NCBI GenBank assembly: GCA_964255285.1
Contig: CAXUUL010000016.1
Coordinates: 46,127-66,126 of the forward strand
Source of the DNA: Ionaspis alba
Taxonomy: Eukaryota
Length of the DNA stretch: 20,000 nt
Direction of reading: 5' to 3'
Shown: positions 1-18,106 of the stretch, one piece after another
Numbering within the stretch: the stretch's first letter is position 1
Layout of the letters: the number at the start of each line of letters is the position of its first letter
Notes under the pieces: model-generated
The model's database searches: none
What the model saw: only the letters and a program-made list of their open reading frames with translations
Told to the model about the DNA's origin: nothing
Made by a program: the position numbers and the translations under genes

Positions 1-48
1 GCCGATGACAGTGGGAATTGCGGTAATCATGAGAAGTCCAATGACCAT
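1..48 (-). CDS. 5' end (first 16 codons) of a probable conserved fungal hypothetical protein, running off the window
   Basis: The reverse strand from 48 reads ATG GTC ATT GGA CTT CTC ATG ATT ACC GCA ATT CCC ACT GTC ATC GGC = MVIGLLMITAIPTVIG. This resembles the hydrophobic 'MVLGLLxIxAIPTxxG' N-terminus I recall from Pezizomycotina hypothetical proteins. It is divergent from MDM12. Confidence 0.6.
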   Translation of the reverse strand, partial: MVIGLLMITAIPTVIG

Positions 49-407
49 TCTTCTCGACAGGAGCGTCCACTAACGAACGTGCATACTGGAGGGAAATACT
101 TCATACCAAACATGGTAAATACTTTAACGGAGTAAGTGTATTCATCCGTCGGGTCATCCAAACGAGCACGGAAAGATAGGAAAGGATTCCTTGCTGTATT
201 CGTATGACTAGAAACGTCATGGTACTTTTAGTATGCGGGAGGTAGTATCAGCCTCAAGTTAAGCCCAAGATAGTGGCTTTGTCTCGCCAACCACTCATTA
301 AAACTCGATAGCGATTAGGTGATACGGCGGCAATCCGTGAATTTGAGTTCGCTTACCTTGACATCCACAAGTCCCTCGACAACCCAGACGAGAGAAAAGA
401 AAATGTA

Positions 408-1712
408 ATGTCCATTGATATCGACTGGGAAGCTCTTACGACTGGCCCTGATGGGCTTGCACTAGCAGAATCGATCCGTGTCTTCATCCACGACAAATTC
501 CAACAGGTAGCATTACCACGCTTCATCAAATCCGTGGAGGTCCACTCCTTCGACTTTGGAAAACAATGTCCCGTCATAGAGTTGAAGGACGTCTGCGATC
601 CACTACAAGACTTTTATGATGGTAACGACGAAGATGAGGAAGAGCACGAAGGACGAGAACCGCCAGAAGACGAGGTAGAAAGGCAGGATGACCAGGCAAT
701 TGGCGTTGGAGGAGTAAGACCCGAAGAATCACTGAGAGACCGCCGAAAAGTAACTCGCTACAACGAGCTTAACGGAGCAGCGTTGATTTCGGGCACACAG
801 CCGAAGCCTCCCTCGATCATTGATGCGCGGCCGAATCTACGCTCTAATGGGAGCCTAGCAGACCAGATTGCAGGTCCATTGCTCAGCCGTTCTGGTACTC
901 CTGGCATTCCGGGAGGCACCTCGAATCTCAGCTACTTCCATCTTCCTCTCAGCGCTGGTCTGTCTGGTTCCCAAACACCTCTAGCAGCAGTGGCGGGCGG
1001 AACGCCTTACCAAGCGAACTGGCAAGACTTCCACGCACCGCCATGGGAGCATCATCCCCGATGTAATTTCCCGCGGGAAAGGCAGCACTACGTCTCTCAA
1101 GACCATACCTATGCCGACCCTTCCACACGTCCTTCCACGGCTACATCATACGCTCCACAGCATGGTGGCTTTACACGACAAGATTCTATTGACGGTACGG
1201 CGGATCAATCCGATTCGCAGACCCAACGCCACGAGCCAGATCCCTCAGACCTGCAGATCGTGTTACACATCTCATATAGCGGTGATATCAGGCTTTCATT
1301 AACAGTGGAAATCTTGCTCGATTATCCCATGCCAAGCTTTGTTGGCATCCCATTGAAGCTCAACATCACTGGTTTGAGCTTTGACGGTGTGGCTCTCATC
1401 GCATATCTGAAGAAGAGGGCGCAATTTTGTTTTCTCGGAGAAGAGAACGCCGTGACGTTGGTCGGTGCTGAGAATGCCCTTGATGACAGTGGACATGGTG
1501 AAGATACTAAAGCCATGGATCGTAATCAGCACGGCGACAAGCTGGGAGGGCTCTTACGTGAGATCAAGGTAGAAAGTGAAATTGGCCAGAAAGAAGGAGG
1601 AAAACAGGTGCTTAAGAATGTTGGGAAAGTGGAAAAATTTGTGCTTGAACAGGTCAGGCGAATCTTCGAGGAAGAGTTCGTTTATCCGAGTTTCTGGACA
1701 TTCTTGGTATAG
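408..1712 (+). CDS. MDM12: Mitochondrial distribution and morphology protein 12 (ERMES subunit, SMP domain), single exon, 434 aa
   Basis: N-terminus MSIDIDWEALT...FIHDKFQQVALPRFIKSVEVHSFDFG, central LLDYPMPSFVGIPLKLNITG, and C-terminus KQVLKNVGKVEKFVLEQVRRIFEEEFVYPSFWTFLV are typical of fungal Mdm12. A long low-complexity insertion lies between them. Confidence 0.95.
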   Translation: MSIDIDWEALTTGPDGLALAESIRVFIHDKFQQVALPRFIKSVEVHSFDFGKQCPVIELKDVCDPLQDFYDGNDEDEEEHEGREPPEDEVERQDDQAIGVGGVRPEESLRDRRKVTRYNELNGAALISGTQPKPPSIIDARPNLRSNGSLADQIAGPLLSRSGTPGIPGGTSNLSYFHLPLSAGLSGSQTPLAAVAGGTPYQANWQDFHAPPWEHHPRCNFPRERQHYVSQDHTYADPSTRPSTATSYAPQHGGFTRQDSIDGTADQSDSQTQRHEPDPSDLQIVLHISYSGDIRLSLTVEILLDYPMPSFVGIPLKLNITGLSFDGVALIAYLKKRAQFCFLGEENAVTLVGAENALDDSGHGEDTKAMDRNQHGDKLGGLLREIKVESEIGQKEGGKQVLKNVGKVEKFVLEQVRRIFEEEFVYPSFWTFLV

Positions 1713-1859: not shown

Positions 1860-3023
1860 CTAAACATCTACCTCGCTCTGAATCTGCACCTTGATCGCAC
1901 CCGTCTTTGGGTCCGCCGCCGTCTTGAAAGCATTGACTGCATCCTCGATATCGAAACGATGCGTTACCAGCTTCGACAAGTCAATGATTCCACTTTCGAC
2001 CAATCTGATAGCTCGTGGCCAGGTGTTGCAATATCTGTACTGAAACTGCAAATCGATCTCCTGCGTACTCAATCTCATGAAAGGCATATTCATCTCGTTC
2101 CTGCCAACTCCAATCACGAATACCTTACCTCCGAATTTGACGCTCCATATTGCAGTTGTGATGCTGCTCTCGACGCCGGTGCACTCAAGAGCGACGGCTA
2201 GTCGGATGTCCCCTGCAGCTTTGATGATCTCCTCCGCTGCCTGCTCGGGTCCAACACCTCGCTCGACCTTGTACGTTTTCACGCTTGGGACAAGCTCTTT
2301 CGCGAATTTGAGCCTTCCCTCGTCGATATCAGTAATCACAATAGGCTCGGCCCCAGCAGCTCGACAGCAGAGTAGGGTGACAAGACCTATAGGACCAGCA
2401 CCGCAGACAAGGACTGGGTCTCCGAGTCTGACGCCGCTCCGTTCCATACCAGCAAGAGCAACACTGAGAGGTTCCAGCATCGACCCCTTCTCAAAGCTCA
2501 TGTCACCAATCTTATGACACCACACTGCCGGGTGGTTGAGGTATCTCCTCAGTAGGCCGTTGAATGGTGGGGTCGATGAGAACTGCATGTCCTCACATCC
2601 GTTGTAGCGGCCAGTCAGACACGGCTCACACTTGTTGCAAATGATGTTCGGCTCAATCGCGACCCTGTCTCCGACTTTCAGATGTGTCACTGACGGATGG
2701 GCGGCGAGGACGACGCCAGCGGACTCGTGTCCGAGTATGTGGTCATCTTTGACTATCATTGGCCCAATGGCGCCTGCGTGCCAGAAGTGAACATCGGACC
2801 TGAGCTCTCACGTCATCAGTGTTACGTTCTCGAGCTAGATTATCTCTCGAACTGACCCGCAAATGCCGGTACTCTTGACTCCTACTGTCACCTCTCCCTC
2901 CTTCAATCCCTCTCCGCTCTTGACCTCTTCAAGGCTCGGCTTGGAGTCGGCAATCCAGAGATCGTGGGCTGGGTTCGTGTACACGCCCACATTCTTCTTG
3001 GTGATGGTTGTGGTGGCGGACAT
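1860..3023 (-). CDS. lad1: L-arabinitol 4-dehydrogenase (Zn-dependent medium-chain dehydrogenase), 2 exons (3023-2857, 2799-1860), 368 aa
   Basis: Intron 2856-2800 (GTCAGT...CAG, 57 nt) restores GICGSDVHFWH. Also present: GHE motif, structural Zn motif [15 protein letters not shown], Rossmann GAGPIG and TDID (NAD preference). [13 protein letters not shown] and [14 protein letters not shown] fit LAD better than sorbitol/xylitol dehydrogenase. Confidence 0.9.
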
Positions 3024-3600: not shown

Positions 3601-3884
3601 GGGCTGAGGTGGCTGTGAACAAGGGACCCCGATGTGCAGTACTCAGGGTTGTGTCTGCAGAGACAGTCACCTAAACCTAATAAGAATTTGGACGGCGCTG
3701 CTACCCGAACAGATTCTACTGTTACCAGAGCCATATCACGCATGCAGGTGGGAAAACGGCTTGGCGGCAGCTCAGCCTTGTGATCGGAGCCCTACTTTTC
3801 CATCTCCTCAAATTAGGTTATTTTTTTCATCTTCCAGAGCCGACACAATTGCGTTGTTTGGCTGCTACAGCAATATTATCAATC

Positions 3885-6278
3885 ATGGGTGGCCAGTCTA
3901 GGAAAGCGACGAAGAAGTTTGAGAAGAACCATCTGAAAGATATCATTGAGCAGCGCAAAGACCACGCAAAAATCAAACAGCGTCAGCAGATCAAAGCTAA
4001 GAAGAAAGCCAGGAATGCGAGCGACTACGCCAAAGTTTCGGATCAGGAAGAGCCGGGCGCAACGGAGAGGAATGGCGGCAAACAGAGTCGCACAGCGGAT
4101 GCTCTGAAAGACATGACTGTGGATGAGTTCTTCCAAGGCGGATTCGATATTCCGGAACTCAAGGAGGCCCCCAAAACGCAGTCGACGGTTAAACACCTTG
4201 CACCTCAAACAGGAAAACGAAAGCAGCATGTTGGGTCAGATGATAAAATTGAGACCAGCGTTTCAGACTCCATGATCTTGAACGGAGAGGAAGTTCCAGC
4301 GGACGACCCAATCGTGTCCGAGTCCGAGCCCGAATCCGAGTCCGAGTCCGAATTCGAAGGCGATACAGCGATTAGAGCACACAGAGGGGAATTGGATGCC
4401 TTGGCTGCGAACGATCCAGACTTCTACAAATACCTGAAGGAGAATGATGCAGATATGCTGGACTTTGCCGAGGACGCGGACCTACCGGCTGTTCAAGTGA
4501 GCGAAGAGGAGGACGAACCGCCCTCTAAAAAAATAAAGCGCAAGCAGGTCGAGGCGGCTGTTCTGGAAACGGACGAGGAAACAGAGGTGACGATGGCGCT
4601 GCTCGAGAAGTGGCGGACTGCCATGGCAGAGCAGAAATCTTTGCGAGCAATGCGCGAGGTGGTTCTGGCTTTCCGTGCCGCCGTTCATGTCAACGAGGAG
4701 GACGGTAAAGCATACAAGTATAGCATTTCTAGTCCTGAGGTCTATCACCAGCTTCTTGTGATCTCTTTGCAATATGTCCCCGAAGTCCTGGGTCACCACC
4801 TTCCCATCAAGGAAGTAACGTCGGGCAGAGTGCGTGTTCCGACGGACTCAAAGAAGTATCGAACCTTGACACCCCTGCTGAAGTCTCATGCTGCATCGCT
4901 ACACCACTTGCTAGAAAATCTATCGGACCCTCCGACCATCAAACTGACGTTGAATTCAGTGCTCCCACTGCTTCCTTATGTGCTGTCATTCAAAAAGGCC
5001 CTCAAGAATCTAACCAAGACGATTGTCGGCATCTGGTCGGATTCTTCGAGCACGGAAGTGACCCGTATCAACGCCTTCCTTCTTATCCGTCGATTGGCCG
5101 TCATTAGCGATGCTTCTCTTCGTGAGGCTGTCCTCAAGACAACTTATCAAGGCTTGGTCAAAGGCAGTCGAAACACGACCATACACACTCTACCAGGTAT
5201 AAATCTTATGAAAAATTCTGCAGCTGAGCTCTGGGGTCTCGATCCGACTATCGGGTACACAACCGGCTTCACATATATTCGCCAGCTCGCAATTCACCTT
5301 CGGACTAGCATCACCCAACCCACCAAAGACTCCTACAAAGCTGTCTATAATTGGCAGTACACGCATTCCTTAGACTTTTGGTCTCGGGTGCTCTCTCTCC
5401 ACTGCTCGACCGCGACCAACCCCACAATCAGGAAGCCCTTCGACTCACCGCTCCACCCACTCATCTATCCTCTTGTTCAGATCACATTGGGAGCGCTGCG
5501 CCTCATCCCAACACCTACTTATTTCCCGCTTCGCTTCCATCTCGCTCGATCTATACTCCGTATATCTCGCAGTACGAATACCTACATTCCGCTTGTGCCA
5601 TCACTCGTCGAAGTTCTGCAATCACCAGAATTGAGGAAAGCCCCCAAGGCTAGTACTCTGAAACCGCTCGACTTCAATGTTGCCATTCGAGCACCCAAGT
5701 CTTACATCCGCACCCGTATCTACCAAGATGGGGTCGGCGAGCAGGTTTCCGAGCTTTTGGCCGAGTTCTTTGGGGTTTGGTGTAAAAGCATTGCCTTCCC
5801 CGAGCTCGTCATTCCACCTACTGTACTGCTGAAGCGATGGTTGAAGGAAGTCTCTGCGCCTCCATCGAAAGGATCACAGATTTCAGGGGCGCGGAAAGAT
5901 GGCAAAGGCAACAAGAATTCCAAGCTGAATTCATCCATCTCGCTTTTGGTCCAAAAGCTTGATGCTAACGCGAGGTACGTGGAAGAGACCAGAAGGAGGG
6001 TCGACTTTGCCCCGAGCAATCGCACGGCAGTCGAGGCTTTCCTGAAAGACGTAGAGTGGGAAAATATGCCGTTGGGGGCATTTTTGGTGGGGATGAGGAA
6101 GCAGCGGGAGCAAAGGGAGAAAATTTTAGAAGAAGGAAGGAGAGAGGAGCAGGAACGGCGGGACCAGGAGAAAGAGGATGGCAAGTCGGTCGACGAAGCC
6201 AGCGCTATTTCGACCGAAGGTGGTGATGATGACCTTGATGACGAGGTTGATGGAGATGGAGAGGCGATGGACGAATAG
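3885..6278 (+). CDS. NOC2: Nucleolar complex protein 2 (60S biogenesis), single exon, 797 aa
   Basis: First ATG at 3885 (ATCATGG); the ORF-track start at 3780 is not ATG. Noc2-type motifs: KATKKFEKNHL, MTVDEFFQGGF, DPDFYKYLKEND, INLMKNSAAELW, YIRQLAIHLR, VYNWQYTHSLDFW, FPLRFH, SIAFPEL. Acidic C-terminal tail. Confidence 0.95.
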   Translation: MGGQSRKATKKFEKNHLKDIIEQRKDHAKIKQRQQIKAKKKARNASDYAKVSDQEEPGATERNGGKQSRTADALKDMTVDEFFQGGFDIPELKEAPKTQSTVKHLAPQTGKRKQHVGSDDKIETSVSDSMILNGEEVPADDPIVSESEPESESESEFEGDTAIRAHRGELDALAANDPDFYKYLKENDADMLDFAEDADLPAVQVSEEEDEPPSKKIKRKQVEAAVLETDEETEVTMALLEKWRTAMAEQKSLRAMREVVLAFRAAVHVNEEDGKAYKYSISSPEVYHQLLVISLQYVPEVLGHHLPIKEVTSGRVRVPTDSKKYRTLTPLLKSHAASLHHLLENLSDPPTIKLTLNSVLPLLPYVLSFKKALKNLTKTIVGIWSDSSSTEVTRINAFLLIRRLAVISDASLREAVLKTTYQGLVKGSRNTTIHTLPGINLMKNSAAELWGLDPTIGYTTGFTYIRQLAIHLRTSITQPTKDSYKAVYNWQYTHSLDFWSRVLSLHCSTATNPTIRKPFDSPLHPLIYPLVQITLGALRLIPTPTYFPLRFHLARSILRISRSTNTYIPLVPSLVEVLQSPELRKAPKASTLKPLDFNVAIRAPKSYIRTRIYQDGVGEQVSELLAEFFGVWCKSIAFPELVIPPTVLLKRWLKEVSAPPSKGSQISGARKDGKGNKNSKLNSSISLLVQKLDANARYVEETRRRVDFAPSNRTAVEAFLKDVEWENMPLGAFLVGMRKQREQREKILEEGRREEQERRDQEKEDGKSVDEASAISTEGGDDDLDDEVDGDGEAMDE
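4317..4358 (+). repeat. Coding hexamer microsatellite, (TCCGAG)-like x7, encoding SESEPESESESEFE within NOC2
   Basis: tccgag tccgag cccgaa tccgag tccgag tccgaa ttcgaa. Confidence 0.85.
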
Positions 6279-6864
6279 AACGGGACGGTTCACACGATTT
6301 AGCTTGAGTAGAATGAGGAGGATTTGTACTCTTTGACCAGTTCAACCACTTATGGAAGGCAAGGCGTCATTAAATAGACCATCTAGTGTCTATACATCAA
6401 ATCTCGTAGCGTGGAGATATTTCTATGTTCCACCAAGCAAAGTTACTTCTTTCCGGCGCCCCAGTTCCATTCATTTTGTCTTTCCTTCTTTCAGCCTCTT
6501 CTAAACCCACACAAGTGCAGAAGCATAGCCAATAGGTCCCCTGGAGACCTGCACCCCGAATTGTCTGCACCGAATGAAGAAAACAAAGTCTAAGCGAGGT
6601 GGGCCCATGATCTGCTTCCAGGGAACCATCATAAGAACTGTACTGAAAAATCCATCTAGTACTCGTACACTTGCTCGCTCTAGCGCCAAATAGCAAAACA
6701 AATAATGCAAGCAACGAGTGTTGTCTTGATGTCCAGATCAAAGCAAAGCTTTTATGCAAATCGTCTGGGCGCAAACTGGACACAATGCCTCTGGTTCCAT
6801 TGACGATATCGAACATGAATAGCGAAGTATGAGAGGCGACAGTTTAGCAGCGTATCAGCATGGG

Positions 6865-8834
6865 TTATTGAACCATTTCCTCCCCTATTCCCGGCAAGCC
6901 CGCGCCAGCGATATTGGCGTTTAAACCAGCATTGATGGGTATGCCCGCACCGAGCTTCAATTCTGGATTGCAGGGCGGAGAGTGAGACTTGTGGTATTTC
7001 AGCCCATTCAGATTTTTATAGCGCTTGCCACAGACCTCGCATTTGTAGGGCTTTTCTTTTTCCATGCCGAGAGTGCCAGGATATGGAGACAGAGTGGTGG
7101 GGTCGACAATGGAGAATGTACCATCAGCGTTCTCATGTAGCTGCTGGTTATTGTGGCCATGCTGCAAAGTGGTAATTAGTCTTGTGCGACGGACTGCCAC
7201 ACGATAAGCTTACCGTCTTATGATACTTTAGTCCATTCTGGTTCTTGTATGCTTTCTCGCAGCCTATGACAGGGCATCTGAATGGTTTTGGTTCTTCTCC
7301 GTTCATACCCGTGGTTGTGTCCGCTAGCCCAACTCTCCGTTGCTGCTCGCGGATCCTCCGCGCAATCTCACTATTAGCGCCATACTGTGCACTCCCTAGT
7401 CTGGATTGAGTGTACTGTTGGTTGTTGAAGCCGCCGTTCGGATTGAATAATCGTTTGGCGGGCTCGTCAATGCAAAGATCCAACATATCGTTCCCGTTCC
7501 CAAACCCGTAACCACCTAAATCCTGCTGTTGACCTTGCATGAACTGGCTGTTATCCACAGCCATGTTGTCCATGTGCCCCAGAAAATCCGGATCCAACTC
7601 TCCGGGAGTTCCGGGTGCGGATGAGTCGGGTGTGTTGCGAAACTGCTGCTGCTGCAGAGGATGAGCGCTCAGCGTTGGTGTATTGACCGACGAAACTGTA
7701 GGGTTATGATGATAAAGGCCCCCAGGTCGACCACCTGAAACAGGAGTTGATGGCTGAGAGTGTTTTAAGCCCTGATAGCTATGCAAAGGATTGTTCAGGT
7801 TGTGGGTGTTGAGATCAAGAGGAGGAACCCGTGCGCCGCCTGGCTGACCGAACTGAGATCGTGGAGGAATCGGAGGTCTGTCTTGTAAAGGGTATTGTGA
7901 TTGTAGCTGAGCATTTGAGTGGAAATCATCCCCGAGCCCCCCGCCTGAGATATCATCCATGTCCATATCCTCGACGGACTCCATGTTATGTACCGGCTGT
8001 GATGAAAGCGAGGTGAATTCTCCTGGCCTGAACTGGGGATGGGATGGTAGAGCACGGGTAGAACTAGGCCCTTGGCGAGAAGATGATGACTGGTTCGTGG
8101 AGCTGGAGCTGTTCTGGTGTTGCTGCTGGACATTCGTAGCAGCCGAAGCGGCAAGTGCAGCTCTTGTGTCTGGAGGGGCCGTGCTTTGATGGGTTGGTTG
8201 CATAGGCATCGTGGTGGGCATTTGCTGAGCATGAGCCTCTTCATAATGCTGCAGCAGGTCATGTAGAGAAGGTAGTGTCATTCCGCAACAGGAGAAGTCT
8301 TTCATGAAATTGGCTTCGAGTTTCGGAAGATAAGAGGAGGAGTGGAAAGAGGGAGACTGGTAGGCAAAAGGTGAGGTTCCTTGCATTATGATGCTACTAA
8401 AGCATTAGTACTATCTTCGACGAGCTACCAGAACTTCATGCCAGCGAGCTTTGGGGAACAGGGAGGTACAAGATAGAGAGAGGACTTAGCACATACTCGT
8501 CGCGAATCCAACTCCCGACCGAGACTCCACCCCAGCTCATACCTCCTACAAGGCTGCCAGCCAGACTTTCTCGCCTAGGTTGGGATCTTCCCGCACTGTT
8601 CATGGATATAGGTTGTGCTCCGCTACCATATTGGGGCGTCAGTCCCGACATGGCTGCGGACAGAGAATCGTGCCGTCCAAAAGCGGTCGATTTGCCGCCG
8701 CCGCCAACCACGTTCAATGCTGATGAAGGTCTGATCTCATTTCCAGTGGTGGCTTGTAGGGCGGATGTCAGGTTAGACGAGCGGTTTTGCGGCGACTGGG
8801 TGGCAATGCTGATAGGGGAGGAAGCCGTCGCCAT
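6865..8834 (-). CDS. SFP1: Split zinc-finger (C2H2) transcription factor Sfp1; exons 8834-8497, 8393-7214, 7161-6865; 604 aa from the first ATG (699 aa if CTG 9119 is used)
   Basis: Intron 8496-8394 (GTATGT..TACTAAT..TAG) gives [25 protein letters not shown]. Intron 7213-7162 (GTAAGC..ACTAAT..CAG) gives [15 protein letters not shown]. Also [53 protein letters not shown] and [21 protein letters not shown], with a Q/S/N-rich middle. Confidence 0.93.
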
Positions 8835-11145
8835 TGCACGTGGCGGTGAGGAGTGGCCGAAGAGAGGAAAGCTGGAATCGTCCAAGTCGGAATCAAGCAG
8901 GGCCGAGTCGAGATAGAGGCTGGACTGTCCGCCGAAACCGTCGATGGACTTGCGATGCCAGGAGAAGAGGAGATCCTTCTCCCGCTCCGACTTGCGCGGA
9001 TAGACAGGGCCGAAACCCTTGGGCGTGCCAACCGGAGTCGTTTCGCTGGGAGAGACTCGTTCAAAGTCACTTGGGGTGGGCGAGTAGTGTAGAGGAGGTG
9101 GAGTCTCTCGAGAATCCAGCTTTACGAATTATTGAAGTCGAGATCTTAGGGGGAAGAGAGGCGGATATAAGCGGTGAGGTGTTTCGAGGCGGGAATACGG
9201 CTTTTGGGTTGACAGTTGCGGCGAGTGGCGACGGTGTGTATTGCAGTTGCCAGTGAAGCTGAAGAAGATGAATAAAGTGCCTGCTTGATGAAGCTGGGGA
9301 GATAGGTGGGTGGATGAAGGAAGTGGTACGAGTAGTCGCAGGAGCAGTAATAGCAGGCGCACTAGTGGTAGTGAGAGACGGGATGCTTGGCGGGCTAGAA
9401 GACTAATGTAGGCATGGAATAGTAGTACCCATGTAATAACACTGTAATGAGAAGGACAGTGATGGTATTATTGTGGAAGAGTTATGTCAGAGCACCTTTT
9501 TACTTCCTCGTACTCCGTATGATTGGCACTATGACGAACCGAAACGGGGGGCACCGGCTGCTGAGTTAGGGACCCTGTTTAGCTTGACCACAGTATCCAT
9601 AAGCGCTTGTACACTTTACTCGTGCTCGCACTGTCCGCTGGATTCTCTCCACCACCCAGCACAACTGCCGGTAAAATATCCAGACTATTGACAAGCGTTA
9701 GATGGGGTAGTGCAGGTGCCTGCAGACTTAAGTCTGACCAGCTCCGACGATATAATCCGGTGTCAGACCACAGAAGTAGCATTTTTGTCAGCGTGCAAGC
9801 TTGCCGAGGAAGGGCCATGATCGTGAATGCCATCTGCCAACCTGCCTCGGAAGGCGGACGGAGTGGCAACACATACATGGCATGGACGGGGTGGCAAGAA
9901 TTATGAGTGTACAGCTTACGAAGTCCCTCTGCGACATCTTCAATCTTGACTCTAGTAATTGTTCTCGGAGGATGATGTCTGTTCTGAAGCATATGCAGAA
10001 GCGACGACACAGGGACTGTACGACATGTTATGGACGGTCATTATTGTTCCAACTGATCGATCTCCGTTCACCCTGATTATTCAGGGTTGTGGGATTGTGG
10101 AGAGGATCGGAAGGACCCGATCGTGAAACCTGTGGATGCTACCACACCATCGACATGTGCAATCGTTTAAGCAAGTCAGCGTTCCGATAGCTGGCTATGA
10201 TCAAATATGGTCCAGCATCGCCGGAACAAGGCTGTCATGATGGATTTTATGAGTTAGAGTCCCTTCAACAGCAATCAAGTACGGACGATATCACAAGAAA
10301 TGGGCCGTTTATAGCTGACGATTATAGGAAAGAAGTGATCTCCACGAGAATGAAACTCTCCAAATGTCCTCTGAGCGTAAGGGTATGCTTTTCTGATTAT
10401 GTGATCCCCTTGACATGGATAAATGGGGTATGATGAACAGAAAGGGGTATCTTGAAGAGCTGGAGAAGAAGATGGATATAGTGGAGGCTACTAAGAAAAA
10501 GAGTTTGGCGCCTCAGCGTTTCCACGTTTCTCAGGGTCTTGGCAATTCGGCTCTTCTTCTCGTTGATGACGGAACCCTATTTGCTGCACCAGGACGATCT
10601 AGCCCTTGGATGGGACCTAAGCATAGCTGACCACCAAAACAGCCGTCTGTCTTCCAGTCACCCATTGTCCTCTTATTCGATCCAATCTACATAGGGTAGA
10701 CCGGGCCAAGGACCCCGTCAAGCCACAATGCGGTGAATTGTACCTTCAATCAACCGATCAAGAAAACGGTTCCTGCTCTTCGACAGTTCCTTCCCTGTCA
10801 AACAGTACACTGGATGCCAATTCCAGACAACAGCTGGCAGCCCCGGAGAGCTGTGAGGCGCTACTACCATTGAGCGGCCAAAGCACAGTTGAGCTTCAAC
10901 CATGTAAGTTCGACGTGCTCTCTTGCCCCTTGTAGATTACATTAGATTATCAGGGTATGGAGTACCAACTCGTGGAGTCGGCGCTTCACCGGCGTGAGTT
11001 TACGAGTGATCGGCTGCTAAGGTCTCTGTCGTAGTGTGTTGCACGCGTCTGTCACTGAGGCCATGTATCTGAGCGGCTGAATCCGAACAACTCGAGGATG
11101 GTTCCAAGGAATAGGTAGCACACTCGAACAATCGGCTATCCTATA

Positions 11146-13508
11146 ATGTCATCGATCAGCCAAAAGCCTTTCTCTAACCCTGTCGAGCCATCAGCAGGGT
11201 TAGCAGCGGCACCGTCTTCTAATGTCGAGGACGGAACTGCACCATCCCCAGCTCAAGACCAAGACTCATCTACCACGAAGGCCGAAAAGTTTGAGAGGAA
11301 TGGTCGTCCTTCCGGAGAGACAGAATTGGAGCCACCAGCCAAGAAGACGAAATTGGATGGGTTTCCTGAGATTGCTGGTGTGGAAAGACGGAAAGGAGTA
11401 GCTCCTATCAAAGCAGAGTAGATAAGATTTCTCCTTTCATTGCCTTCTCGACCTCTGACCTCGATAGATACTTAATCAGTGCACTTGGAAGTAGGAGCCT
11501 GCCGGTCCAAGCGAGTGTCGACGATGGCGCAGCCGAGACGGTACCGCACACAGATGATCGAGATCACCCTAACGGAGGAGGAGGTAGGAGAAGGGAGAAA
11601 GGTAAAGGCCAAAATAAAGGTCGCGACTATGGCACTTCACGAGATGAAAGGGGCTTATGTCAAAGTCGTGCCCAGTTCGCAGAATTCTCCCCCTCTTCTT
11701 GCCCATTTGGAGACAATTGTAAGTTTGAGCACGATCTTCGAAAGTATCTTCGAGAATGGAAGAGAGAGGATTTGAAGACGCTCGGAGGAAGGTGTCCCGT
11801 CTGGACACTGAATGGTACATGCAGCTCTGGCTGGAAATGTCGCTTCGTGGGATCCCACTCAGAGGAGAGGGACACTCTCGATGGTCGGAAAGAGCTTGTC
11901 TTGATAGAGGGGGCCAAGATAAACCGGTCGACATCGGGCTCCGCCGACGACGACCGCGGACTTTATATCTTGAACCAAGTGTCAACGGGGGCCAAAGTGG
12001 ACCTGATGAAGCGAAGGATTCAGACTTCTAAAGCCGATGAATACTCGAACTGGCTTGACGAGAGTGGAAAGGTCACACTCAAACAACAAAACAGAAAGAA
12101 GTATGAGAATGAAGGCAGTAGCCGCGTGGGAGTAGCTCCTGGGGAGGCACGCGAAGATGCTAGAGCACAATACCGAGAGGCACCCTTTCTGCCAATCGAA
12201 AAACGGCGAATCTATTTCGGGCCAGAGACTCCAGTCCTTGCCCCCTTGACGACGCAGGGCAACCTGCCGTTCAGAAGGATGTGTATTGACTTTGGTGCGC
12301 AGCTTACTTATTCGGAGATGGCTATGAGCATGCCATTGATACAGGGACAGAAATCAGAATGGGCTTTGATGAAAGCGCATCGGATTGAGGCGGAGCCTCC
12401 ACGATACAGTCCATCATCGATAGTCACCGACTACGACAATGCCAAAGATCTACGGTTTGGTGCCCAGATTGCAGGGAACAAGCCGCATCAAGTCATGAAG
12501 GCAACGGAAGTGCTCACAAAGCTTTGTCCCCATCTCCGAGTCGTCGACTTGAATTGCGGCTGTCCGATTGACCTAGTGTATCGTCAAGGCGCAGGTTCTG
12601 CACTACTTGATAGCCAGCCGAAACTTGAAAAGATGCTACGTGGAATGAATGCTGTCTCTGGAGAGATCCCGATCACAGTGAAAATACGGATGGGTACTCG
12701 GGATGGAAAGCCCAACGCTTTGAAGCTGGTCGACCGTTTAGTGTATGGTGGTTCTGATGGTAATGAAGCCAGTGGTGAACCGTGTGGCATCGCGGCCATC
12801 ACTTTACATGGTCGAAGTAGACAACAGCGATATACCAAGAATGCTGATTGGAAATACATCTACGACTGTGCAGCTCTGATAAAGAGACACACCGAGTACG
12901 GTAATGATCTTGCCGACACCAATCGAGAGCCCGAACCACGACAGCAGTCACCCTCCAACAAGGTTTTCTTCCTCGGAAATGGAGACTGTTTCTCTCACGT
13001 TGACTACGACGCTCACATTCGGGATGCTAGGGTCGATTCAGTCATGATAGCCCGCGGAGCATTGATCAAACCCTGGATCTTTGAGGAAATTGAGAAAGGT
13101 CAATATCTCGACAAATCTGCTACAGAGCGTCTTGCGATGGTGGAGTCATATGTACGGTATGGATTAGAAACATGGGGATCCGATGAAATGGGAGTGGGTA
13201 CGACTAGGAGGTTCCTATTGGAATGGCTAAGCTTTGCATATCGATATGTCCCTGTGGGAATATTGGAGTATCTGCCACCCAATCTACAAGATCGGCCACC
13301 AGCATGGAAAGGAAGGAACGAGCTGGAGACGCTGCTAGGAAGTGATAATTACAAAGACTGGATAAAGATAAGGTATTGAGATTACATCCACGCCAGGTAA
13401 AGGATGCTAATTTCTAGTAGCGAAATGTTCTTGGGTCCTGCAACCAAGGACTTCCACTTCCAACCCAAACATAAATCCAACAGCTACGAGATAGAGGCTG
13501 AAGGTTAG
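11146..13508 (+). CDS. DUS3: tRNA-dihydrouridine(47) synthase; exons 11146-11417, 11468-13372, 13421-13508; 754 aa
   Basis: Splicing gives [10 protein letters not shown], two CCCH-type fingers ([24 protein letters not shown]), [14 protein letters not shown], catalytic [31 protein letters not shown] and C-terminal ISEMFLGP...[14 protein letters not shown]. Introns are 11418-11467 and 13373-13420. Confidence 0.95.
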
Positions 13509-15861: not shown

Positions 15862-18106
15862 TCATGATTGAATCATGAGACTTTGGCGCATAGGAGCCTC
15901 CTCCACGTGAAATCCGAGCACGAACCGGAACAACTCTTTCAACCAAACATATTGCCCATTCCTGACCATCCATTGAACGGCTTTTCCAACGTCAGTGGCA
16001 CTGGCTCGTCGGGCTGGACCCGCTGATCTGAAAGACGGATCAGTCGCGACCAACTTCTTGTACTTCTCCAGTAGTTGGAGTTGCCAGGACGCGGTTCCAA
16101 AGGAGTCAGACGGTAGAGTACGAACGAAAGAAGCTAGTTTCTCGTCTCTTCGAAATCCCGTATTAACCGCTGCCTTGACAATCAAGAGTCTCAGACAGGT
16201 AAGTCGGGGGTCCTCTGACGGATTGATGACGGTGCTAGTAGAAGATGTTGTGTTATCCGAATAGTCGGACAGAGAGCTCGAGGATGAAGACCACTGGGGA
16301 CCCGGAAATCGATCGCTTGCGTCTGGCCCCAGAACCAGGATATTTGGAACTTGTGCTTCGTCCGGTGAAACCTGCTGAGTGTCTTCGAAGATAGTCGTTG
16401 GGGTCTCTGGATTCTGTCTCCCAAAGTCATCATCCTCGACATCTGACTCTGCCACTGAAATGTCAGCAGCCAGCTCAGTCTGTTTGGCTTGCTGAAATGC
16501 TTGGGTAAAGGTGGTTTGGCTAGGTCTTGGTGTCCCTCTTTCTGGTCGTACCTGGGTCCATCCTTCACGAAAAAGATCGCAAAGTTCCCAGCAAGCTTGG
16601 ACGGCGGATCCCAAAAGCTCCTCATCCGCTTGTTTGCCTTCCCTTTTGTTCTGTCTCAAAGTGAACAGCATTTCTGCTAATGACCAACAGGCTCGTAGCA
16701 ACGCATCTGTCTCTTCTCCAAAATGTGTCCGTTGTTTCATAAGCCGATGGCATAAAGTAACATAGAAATCGAGAGTTCGTTCTCGGAAAGCTTCAGGGAG
16801 TGTGCGATCGTGGGTATTGAACAGGTGATTATTCAGCTCGAAACTGACACGTAGTACTGAATCCGCGATATCATGTTCTCTTTGGCGTACCTCGAATAGG
16901 GTTTGGCAGAAATCTCGACATAAGTCCAAAGTCGCTCGTACATGTAATGAAGTGTCTTCGTCCCTCGTCTCGTAGAGCTTTTGGCATAATTTCCAGCATG
17001 ATTTCCATGCCTGTTCCCGCCCGTTCCGCTTCTTGACCGCGGCGAAAGTCCGCCCTCGATGTATATAGCTCAACCCCGCTAAAGTATTGCATAGAGTCCA
17101 GCATTCTCCCAAAGCTAATTTCAAAGCCGCAATCTCGTTGGTCGTCTTTTGAAATTGATCAATGGCAAAATCGATTGAATCCTGGCAATTCTCATCCTCT
17201 GGATCTTGCGTTTCGGGTATGTCTGCCATTTAAGTCAGACAGGTGCTTTCAACACATGAGAGCGTACGATACCGTCAAGAGGCCGTGACTTTAGCTTTGC
17301 GCTTTTTTCTTGTTCGAAAGTCTCTGCTTCCTGCCTTGTTTGAGCCCGTGGTGTTGCCGACCAGTCTCTTGTAGGGGGTATGTCCGTCGTGATAGGTGGA
17401 GGAGAGAGTGGGCTTTGAACATTCTGGATGTTGTTAATCGACCAAGTCATCTACCAATCAAACAGCCTACCGAATTATCCTGACCAGGATTTGTAATCGT
17501 AACGTCGGATCGTTGAGATGGAGTCGGAGTCGACCGGCGAACTTCTGGAGGAGATGGTGGAGCATGCTGTTGCCTGTTAGCTGAAAGCCCTTGCTCGAGC
17601 TGACAGTACCGACAAATCTTTCGAAGCTCTTCGGCGCATGTATAACTGAAGTCGGATAGGTCTCTTCAGAAGTTCGGGGTTCTCTTGTCGCATCCTTGGT
17701 TTTGAGCTGCGAGACCGTCAGCTTGGTAGATACCCTTGGTAGTATAACCAGCCTTCAAGTTCGATTCTGCGTCTGTTGTGAGCGTGCTTGTAGAGTGCAT
17801 GGACTCCTCTAATGCTGTATCATCTATATCTGTGGAATCTGTGCCTGTCGAGGAAGGGGCAATAGGTGACGGATCGGCGATATCGCTGGGACTGAGAGGA
17901 TGAGGTGACTTTGGGTTAGGCTGTAGATGACCGGTTGAATCCCTGAATGTGTAAGTGTGTTGATTGAACAAGCAATTGATGCTTACGTACGTTGAGGATC
18001 TGTTGTGATAAGGAGCAGGAGAACTGGGGGAGTCTGAGTACGGGGAGAACGCTGACATGAGATTGCTATTAGGGGACGGTATGAGAGGAGGCTGAACGGC
18101 CATCAT
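15862..18106 (-). CDS. Conserved fungal hypothetical protein, about 668 aa; proposed exons 18106-17991, 17942-17753, 17706-17614, 17566-17471, 17423-17273, 17222-15862
   Basis: The long last exon has helical C-W-x-L-C motifs (ECWTLCNTL, SCWKLCQKL, ACWELCDLF) and PETPTTIFED. The S/P-rich N-terminus (MSAFSPYSDSP, TSVIHAP, ATPRAQTRQE) is joined in frame by five 46-50 nt introns, each with a branch-like motif and YAG. The upstream exon boundaries are less certain than the last exon. Confidence 0.8.

Follow-up and report, generated by a model that had tools for sequence, protein, structure and literature searches.

Where does translation begin in a gene whose conserved reading frame reaches well upstream of its first ATG? 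The question is raised by the homologue of the transcription factor Sfp1 encoded in a 20,000-nucleotide (nt) stretch of DNA from Ionaspis alba (GenBank assembly GCA_964255285.1, contig CAXUUL010000016.1, positions 46,127 to 66,126), which we call the window and in which all positions are counted from the first letter. On the minus strand an in-frame TAA (9131-9129) is followed by the codons TTC, GTA, AAG, CTG and GAT, and the frame then stays open past the first ATG (8834-8832) to the splice donor at 8496, much as the initial annotation had read it. That annotation proposed that the CTG at 9119-9117 initiates a 95-residue N-terminal extension, and that leaky scanning produces a long and a short protein from one message. 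We compared the locus with its relatives, and the results point to a CUG start which, in combination with leaky scanning, probably yields isoforms of 699 and 604 amino acids (aa).

The Sfp1 homologue and its upstream frame

Sfp1 of Saccharomyces cerevisiae is an activator of ribosomal-protein and ribosome-biogenesis genes, controlled by TORC1 and PKA. The yeast protein has at its C-terminus two C2H2 fingers split by a spacer, and the product of the gene in the window may carry such a pair there. Pfam zf-C2H2 matches are found at two C-terminal places, with E = 0.0066 and 0.0022, both below the gathering score, and the Cys/His pattern of the two putative fingers, about 40 residues apart, is visible by eye. 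The three exons join into a coding sequence of 2100 nt with no internal stop, which gives 699 aa when read from the CUG and 604 aa when read from ATG 8834. Three named homologues can be aligned with this protein over its whole length. The one annotated in Lambiella insularis as 'Transcriptional regulator of ribosomal biogenesis proteins' is 71% identical over 713 columns, with window residue 1 opposite subject residue 73 (subject 73-778). The 'zinc-coordinating transcription factor SFP1' of Aspergillus aculeatinus is 54% identical over 719 columns (window 8-696 opposite subject 13-678), and the homologue from Exophiala dermatitidis is 51% identical, with window residue 5 opposite subject residue 6. 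The last two alignments place the CUG N-terminus where Eurotiomycete Sfp1 has its AUG N-terminus. By these matches, the gene codes for a split C2H2 zinc-finger regulator of the Sfp1 type and belongs to a Lecanoromycete. NCBI and JGI call its homologues either SFP1 or 'Transcriptional regulator of ribosomal biogenesis proteins'; we infer the function in filamentous and lichen fungi from the name alone, and the likeness to the yeast protein is one of described architecture. The A. fumigatus homologue, AFUA_1g14750, is mentioned in the available part of PMC10542180.

The upstream TAA limits an in-frame start to TTC, GTA, AAG or CTG. GTA (Val) was rejected as a start codon: it differs from AUG at two positions, and in relatives it varies as GTN or GCG. 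AAG (9122-9120) was excluded as well, since five loci carry AAA there. Read-through of the stop from an upstream AUG was discarded, because the 112-codon frame that ends at this TAA contains no Met. The CTG lies in the strong context claimed for it, with A at -3 and G at +4. The nearest ATG 5' of it in any frame is at 9415-9413, and the run 9412..8835 (578 nt) has no ATG, as first reported; neither strand of the window has an ATG-to-ATG gap longer than the resulting 581 nt, and the next in length measure 469 and 457 nt. The accompanying estimate of about 9 expected ATGs is right for uniform composition, and for the real, C-rich composition the arithmetic gives about 5. Two tiny open reading frames (ORFs) at 9432-9395 edge the ATG-free run, and would be upstream ORFs if the transcript began further 5'; their ATGs (9432 and 9415) have no matching conserved ATG columns in the relatives.

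Relatives and their classification

The best 80 of 181 loci confirmed in a metagenome scan were taken, and with the window they make 81 sequences. The CTG type (class A) comprises 56 sequences, the window included, which read G-T/C-N AAR CTG GA(T/G) at the 5' edge of conservation and have no ATG there. The ATG type (class B) comprises 15 loci, in which ATG takes the place of the AAR codon and is followed by TTT, TTC, TTG, CTC or ATC. Ten sequences were left unclassed: L043 and L076 (cut by the contig end), L067 (stops near the contig start), L070-L073 (no trace of the domain), and L077, L079 and L080 (different N-terminus). For the deeper statistics we drew on 62 of the 71 classifiable sequences; these comprise 45 unique ones, grouped into 30 clusters at 85% nucleotide identity (20 of the CTG type and 10 of the ATG type). 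As judged from named proteins, the CTG type occurs in Lecanoromycetes, in Dothideomycetes (Clohesyomyces, and Setomelanomma, whose model is spliced into the domain) and in Sareomycetes (Sarea resinae), and the ATG type in Eurotiomycetes (Exophiala, a Chaetothyriales species, Rasamsonia and Aspergillus). The initial M of three proteins that begin 'MKLDSRE' or 'MTLDSRD' (P0023, P0065 and P0015) comes from prokaryote-style ORF calls, and was not counted as ATG.

A conserved N-terminal domain upstream of the first ATG

The 95-residue translation is exactly as first given, and its described features are all there: seven S/T-P sites, two RKS motifs and an acidic-aromatic patch that ends in FPLF. A word-indexed search with residues 1-95, which examined 143 candidates, found eight proteins, all with the stretch, at 51-82% identity; six of the eight are named and all of these come from Lecanoromycetes, with Lambiella at 82% and three others at 77-80%. 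An exhaustive phmmer search of 1.84 billion representative proteins gave 50 matches to the domain at E <= 0.001, 29 of them at E <= 1e-10. When 40 exon-1 peptides are aligned, conservation opens at (V)KLDSR[ED]TPPPL, and the short motifs TPPPLHYSP, TTPxGTP, FSWHRK and the acidic-aromatic ...DSxFPLF are conserved. Relatives encode the peptide in the same frame, ahead of their first ATG. Judged from these alignments, the stretch is a conserved N-terminal domain, shared by the Sfp1 proteins of Lecanoromycetes, Dothideomycetes, Sareomycetes and Eurotiomycetes. The description of this stretch as an N-terminal extension holds in that it is coding and conserved, and fails in that it is not a lineage-specific add-on, but the ancestral N-terminal domain.

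Pfam has no family in exon 1. AlphaFold2, run on the domain with 30 sequences, returned a mean predicted local distance difference test score (pLDDT) of 59.7, a predicted template modelling score (pTM) of 0.15 and no secondary structure, i.e. predicted disorder. Composition and predicted disorder of the domain are consistent with a regulatory disordered region.

Could the stretch be untranslated in I. alba, as a decaying relic of a domain that once started with ATG, so that only the 604-aa protein is made? Eight named public models do begin at the internal ATG, which encodes residue 96 of the long form (Met96), and one group of relatives seems to have lost the domain: in L070-L073 (at about 2500-2850 in each locus) the frame opens 4-13 codons before the equivalent of Met96, exon 1 resembles the type represented by proteins P0043 and P0044, and no trace of the N-terminal domain is found within 1.5 kb, which suggests that the long form is gone from these relatives. 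In the window, however, the domain retains the high identity to Lecanoromycete proteins given above, over a distance at which stops and frameshifts would have built up. The frame is open in all 56 CTG-type sequences, and it is uninterrupted in 71 of the 72 sequences with a recognisable domain. Nonsynonymous divergence (dN) between the window and the closer Lecanoromycete-type loci is 0.28-0.34 in the domain, equal to the 0.30-0.35 in the remaining exon 1, with synonymous divergence (dS) saturated at more than 1.2; the 87 pairs for which dS was usable gave a median dN/dS of 0.40 for the domain and 0.25 downstream of it. Purifying selection, for which the initial annotation had proposed a test, is evident from these values, and a relic is scarcely credible.

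The CTG codon and its context

All 56 CTG-type sequences have CTG as the leucine codon where conservation begins. Among the 35 unique ones the start column is always CTG, while six other leucine columns, 80-100% conserved, use four to six codons each. A maximum-likelihood tree was computed for the 30 clusters with the start columns excluded; on it the start column has undergone no codon changes, compared with five to nine in each of the six leucine controls. These counts indicate that CTG is constrained as a codon rather than as a leucine. Around it, all 20 CTG-type clusters have A at -3 and G at +4, and G at -6 and A at -2 are likewise invariant. In the nucleotide alignment from -30 to +75, nothing is conserved 5' of -7, and then follow C(-7), G(-6), Y, N, A, A, R, CTG, G, A. 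The Asp codon at +4 to +6 is GAT in 17 of 17 clusters, whereas four other conserved Asp columns often have GAC. No in-frame ATG lies between the upstream stop and the CTG in 19 of the 20 clusters. In every CTG-type locus but L048, the first ATG met upstream, whatever its frame, is 178 nt or more from the CTG or missing from the DNA of the locus. RNAalifold, applied to the same -30 to +75 interval of 20 CTG-type sequences, predicted no pairs, i.e. no conserved structure or hairpin around the CUG. The conserved near-cognate codon that the initial annotation had asked to look for is present throughout this class.

The frame might instead be entered by splicing from an upstream exon with an ATG of its own. 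The candidate is ATG 9937-9935 with six codons, a donor GTAAGC at 9919 and an acceptor AAG at 9120; it is formally in frame, and no other combination that preserves the entire domain has a consensus-like donor. An acceptor has to follow the TAA, so only the AAG that ends at 9120 retains the first residues of the domain. The donor side, TTCGTAAGCTG (9922-9912), also resembles the start context, TTCGTAAAGCTG (9128-9117), and several public models splice into the domain or just before it. We judge the near copy of TTCGTAAAGCTG six codons after ATG 9937-9935 to be due to chance, though it is unexplained. The intron would be 800 nt long, as opposed to 103 and 52 nt for the real introns of the gene; in the interval 6-50 nt ahead of the acceptor, a script search detected no CTRAY branch site; and AAG is a poor splice acceptor. 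In five loci (L036, L037, L039, L041 and L042) the codon before CTG is AAA, so that there is no AG to splice to. In 900 nt of aligned upstream sequence, no ATG column is common within any of the three groups of relatives; the N-termini that public models place before the PPPL motif range from 20 to 643 aa and, among those inspected, are unrelated in sequence; and conservation stops sharply at -7. Splicing would account neither for the invariant CTG nor for the preference of GAT over GAC. An upstream ATG exon joined at the AAG had been named among the findings that would refute a CUG start; no conserved one was found, and we regard such an exon as very improbable.

ATG-type relatives, the spacer and Met96

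In 15 loci and in the named Eurotiomycete models, the start is an ATG one codon upstream of the position of the CTG. The codon aligned to CTG is never CTG in the ATG type (0 of 10), and in all 10 clusters the ATG itself has a pyrimidine at -3 and lacks G at +4. The first AUG of these relatives is always in a weak context, so the first start seems built to leak.

Met96, in contrast to these first ATGs, lies in a good context: 26 of 30 clusters have a purine at -3, and 28 have G at +4. It is invariant in all 30 cluster representatives and nearly so among the 40 exon-1 peptides, and belongs to the 10 invariant columns of a region where mean column identity is 36%. The spacer between the two starts is depleted of ATGs: the 30 clusters together hold seven out-of-frame ATGs, compared with 47.4 expected from permutation of codon order, where none of 2000 permutations gave a count as low. 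The remaining exon 1, used as control, has 80, with 63.1 expected. In-frame Met codons number one over all 30 domains, and 1-7 per cluster downstream. A weak AUG or a CUG as the first start, an AUG-free spacer and a strong Met96 make up the same leaky-first-start layout in both classes, and the comparison indicates that this dual-start layout is kept whether the first start is CUG or ATG.

Stray ATGs in L020, L021, L024, L025 and L027 open a 6-9-codon ORF that starts 23 nt before the Met96 equivalent and ends beside it; this conserved ORF could be a reinitiation device. The stray ATGs in L009 and L032 open ORFs of 31-43 codons.

A probable route to two proteins from one message

In the mechanism that we propose for I. 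alba, scanning ribosomes would traverse the AUG-free leader, and a fraction of them would initiate at the CUG 9119-9117 in its conserved strong context CGTAAAG-CUG-GAU, the codon being presumably read as Met by the initiator tRNA. The product would be the long form of 699 aa, carrying the disordered, motif-rich domain of 95 aa. Ribosomes that pass the CUG would scan 285 nt free of AUG in all frames and initiate at the strong-context AUG 8834-8832, giving the 604-aa protein without the domain. The first start would thus be kept leaky by design, and the ratio of long to short form would track the stringency of start-codon selection. Every comparative test that was run favours the earlier reading of a CUG start with two isoforms, and on this support we hold that such a CUG start with leaky scanning is the probable source of both proteins.

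Might the CUG be the only start, with Met96 an ordinary conserved residue and a short isoform that is absent or negligible? Its context, with A at -3 and G at +4, is strong; constraint on the domain matches that on the remainder of exon 1, a clear sign that the long form is needed; and the second protein is one that we infer from comparison. Near-cognate starts are, however, usually far less efficient than AUG, and the depletion of ATGs in the spacer (7 against 47.4) matters only if ribosomes scan through it. The invariance of Met96, one of only 10 such columns, comes together with a strong context; the first AUG is weak in all ten ATG-type clusters; and the L070-L073 lineage apparently lives on the short form alone. 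With these observations, a CUG that acts alone is unlikely.

Alternative promoters are a common source of N-terminal isoforms, and both proteins may be made with the short one translated from a second transcript that begins within the domain or just 5' of it. Such an internal start would also select against ATGs in that part of the domain that has become leader. The depletion, however, spans all 285 nt and extends into the leader, and the weak first AUG in 10 of 10 ATG-type clusters is predicted by leaky scanning and not required by a second promoter. We give the second promoter little credence, and prefer leaky scanning from the CUG.

Several points weigh against leaky scanning from a conserved CUG, or narrow what can be drawn from the comparison. 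All support is comparative and comes mostly from metagenome contigs: the transcription start, the lack of splicing at 9120, use of the CUG for initiation and the making of two proteins are interpretations of sequence. Within the 95 codons of the window itself, there are no out-of-frame ATGs where codon-order permutation gives 1.96, a depletion that is not significant (P = 0.10); the scarcity of ATGs in the window is merely suggestive, and significance comes from the comparative data across relatives. Seven of the 30 clusters have one out-of-frame ATG in the spacer (the other 23 have none), and the L009 cluster has an additional in-frame Met right before Met96. An invariant Met in a good context could be merely a conserved residue. 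At the first start, L048 is the exception among CTG-type clusters in having an in-frame ATG 15 codons (45 nt) upstream, with the CTG and its context kept, and the unclassed L067 has in-frame stops at the expected first codons, within the first 35 nt of its contig. The conservation at -7 to -5 is unexplained, as C at -7 and G at -6 go beyond the start contexts known to us. CTG and ATG types are one change apart on the tree, which indicates that the CTG class goes back to a single ancient event, in either direction, maintained since then, and not to a set of many origins. Finally, nine classifiable loci were left out of the deeper statistics: L039, L046, L053, L060 and L074 at the motif parse, and L055, L059, L061 and L069 because they were recognised later.

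What could a leaky start be for? The ratio of long to short Sfp1 may conceivably serve as a gauge of start-codon stringency, that is, of the state of eIF1, eIF5 and eIF2, and so feed the status of translation into the transcription of ribosome-biogenesis genes; we put this forward tentatively and consider it doubtful. A part of the same hypothesis is that selection acts on the leakiness of the first start and not on its identity. If leakiness is what is selected, this would explain why a strong-context CUG and a weak-context AUG are swapped one codon apart, with the spacer and the second AUG fixed. A conserved leaky start would, if real, couple Sfp1 output to the fidelity of translation initiation, which is testable by reporters.

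Relation to known dual starts

Human MYC, with its CUG and AUG, is a leaky-scanning dual start, and the weak-context AUGs of eIF1 and eIF5 serve autoregulation. The layout of Sfp1 resembles these systems in the suboptimal first start, the lack of AUG between the starts, the strong second AUG and the ratio that would depend on stringency. It differs in gene family and kingdom, and in that Sfp1 is known here from sequence alone; the interchange of CUG and weak AUG between fungal classes offers a natural comparison that those systems do not have.

The closest fungal parallel is cpc-1 of Neurospora crassa, where N-extended CPC1 isoforms arise from conserved near-cognate codons (Ivanov et al. 2017, PMC5487733). 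Both genes encode Pezizomycotina transcription factors with a frame conserved upstream of the main AUG across many species, and in both, conserved non-AUG codons are proposed to give long and short forms; according to the available part of that paper, this has been shown in vitro for cpc-1. The same part describes several candidate near-cognate codons in cpc-1, a leader of more than 700 nt and regulatory upstream ORFs, whereas Sfp1 has one invariant CUG with a sharp boundary and an AUG-free leader and spacer; Sfp1 is set further apart from what is reported there for cpc-1 by its sister lineages, which start at a weak AUG placed one codon upstream. Sfp1 is mentioned 0 times in the available text of PMC5487733. 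Peroxisomal isoforms of 6-phosphogluconate dehydrogenase in fungi also arise by non-AUG initiation (PMC7214817). As far as the accessible text of that report goes, the two cases share a functional peptide encoded within the annotated 5' untranslated region of a fungal gene and started by a non-AUG codon; the extension of the dehydrogenase is a targeting signal on an enzyme, while that of Sfp1 is a 95-aa disordered, regulatory-looking domain in which no targeting signal was recognised.

A literature search, with subscription journals outside its coverage, found no publication that links Sfp1 to a non-AUG start. CUG-started Sfp1 would be a further case of conserved proteoforms that are initiated at non-AUG codons with leaky scanning. 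It would also be an unusually clean one, with a single invariant CUG, a sharp boundary, a stop three codons upstream in this genome and a clade with a weak AUG at the neighbouring codon as a natural control.

Public gene models

Annotators treat the N-terminus of Sfp1 inconsistently. Among the 39 named public models that we inspected, 20 include the domain but put 20-643 aa ahead of its PPPL motif, 8 start at Met96, 6 splice into the domain and 4, from Eurotiomycetes, start at the neighbouring ATG. The N-terminal parts placed ahead of the domain differ from model to model, with no similarity among those inspected. One model of the 39, P0077 from Haloplaca sp. 1, starts with 'MDSRD', with M at the position of the CTG; either this is a natural CTG to ATG change, or the CTG was accepted as a start by the software of the submitter. 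With such models, work on Sfp1 in lichen fungi and Dothideomycetes probably rests on wrong N-termini.

Layout of the gene and its neighbours

The coordinates of the Sfp1 gene and of its upstream region are collected in Table 1.

Table 1. Features of the Sfp1 homologue and its leader in the window (positions in the 20,000-nt stretch; start-related functions are those proposed from comparison)
Feature	Positions	Strand	Remarks
Sfp1 homologue	9119..6865	minus	three exons; CUG form
Exon 1 (CUG form)	8497..9119	minus	donor GA/GTATGT, GTATGT at 8496
Intron 1	8394..8496	minus	103 nt, GTATGT...TAG; junction ...WIRDD/IIMQG agrees with orthologues
Exon 2	7214..8393	minus	first putative C2H2 finger starts here, 7282-7217; zf-C2H2 E = 0.0066, below gathering score
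Intron 2	7162..7213	minus	52 nt, GTAAGC...CAG; interrupts first finger
Exon 3	6865..7161	minus	second putative C2H2 finger 7047-6982; stop TAA 6867-6865
In-frame TAA	9129..9131	minus	three codons 5' of CTG
Conserved start context, -7 to -1 (C G T A A A G)	9120..9126	minus	
Proposed CUG initiation codon	9117..9119	minus	A at -3 (9122), G at +4 (9116)
95-codon N-terminal domain, predicted for long isoform only	8835..9119	minus	
Internal ATG (Met96), proposed start of short isoform	8832..8834	minus	G at -3, G at +4
ATG-free part of presumed 5' leader	9120..9412	minus	C/T-rich
Two overlapping tiny ORFs	9395..9432	minus	ATG 9432-9430 (9 codons), ATG 9415-9413 (6 codons); by eye

Two public runs of DNA contigs, one of them probably the source of the window itself, showed no joints when aligned with it. 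The second run, from the same organism at low depth, covers parts of 6576-10400 with contigs that do not span the 95 codons; it has single-base differences at 7087, 7138 and 9651, and a 1-nt deletion at 9673.

On the plus strand, a gene of the Noc2 family of ribosome-biogenesis factors (3684-6278; Pfam E = 1.4e-123) is convergent with the Sfp1 homologue, their ends being about 590 nt apart. On the other side, a Dus3-like tRNA dihydrouridine synthase with Dus domain and CCCH finger (11370-13376, plus) lies on the strand opposite to Sfp1, 2.25 kb 5' of the CUG, and this 2.25-kb gap is a large intergenic region for a filamentous fungus. The other open frames of the window, at 312-1709 (plus), 1863-2807 (minus) and 15865-17229 (minus), correspond to MMM1 (E = 2.5e-09), a zinc-type alcohol dehydrogenase and DUF7624.

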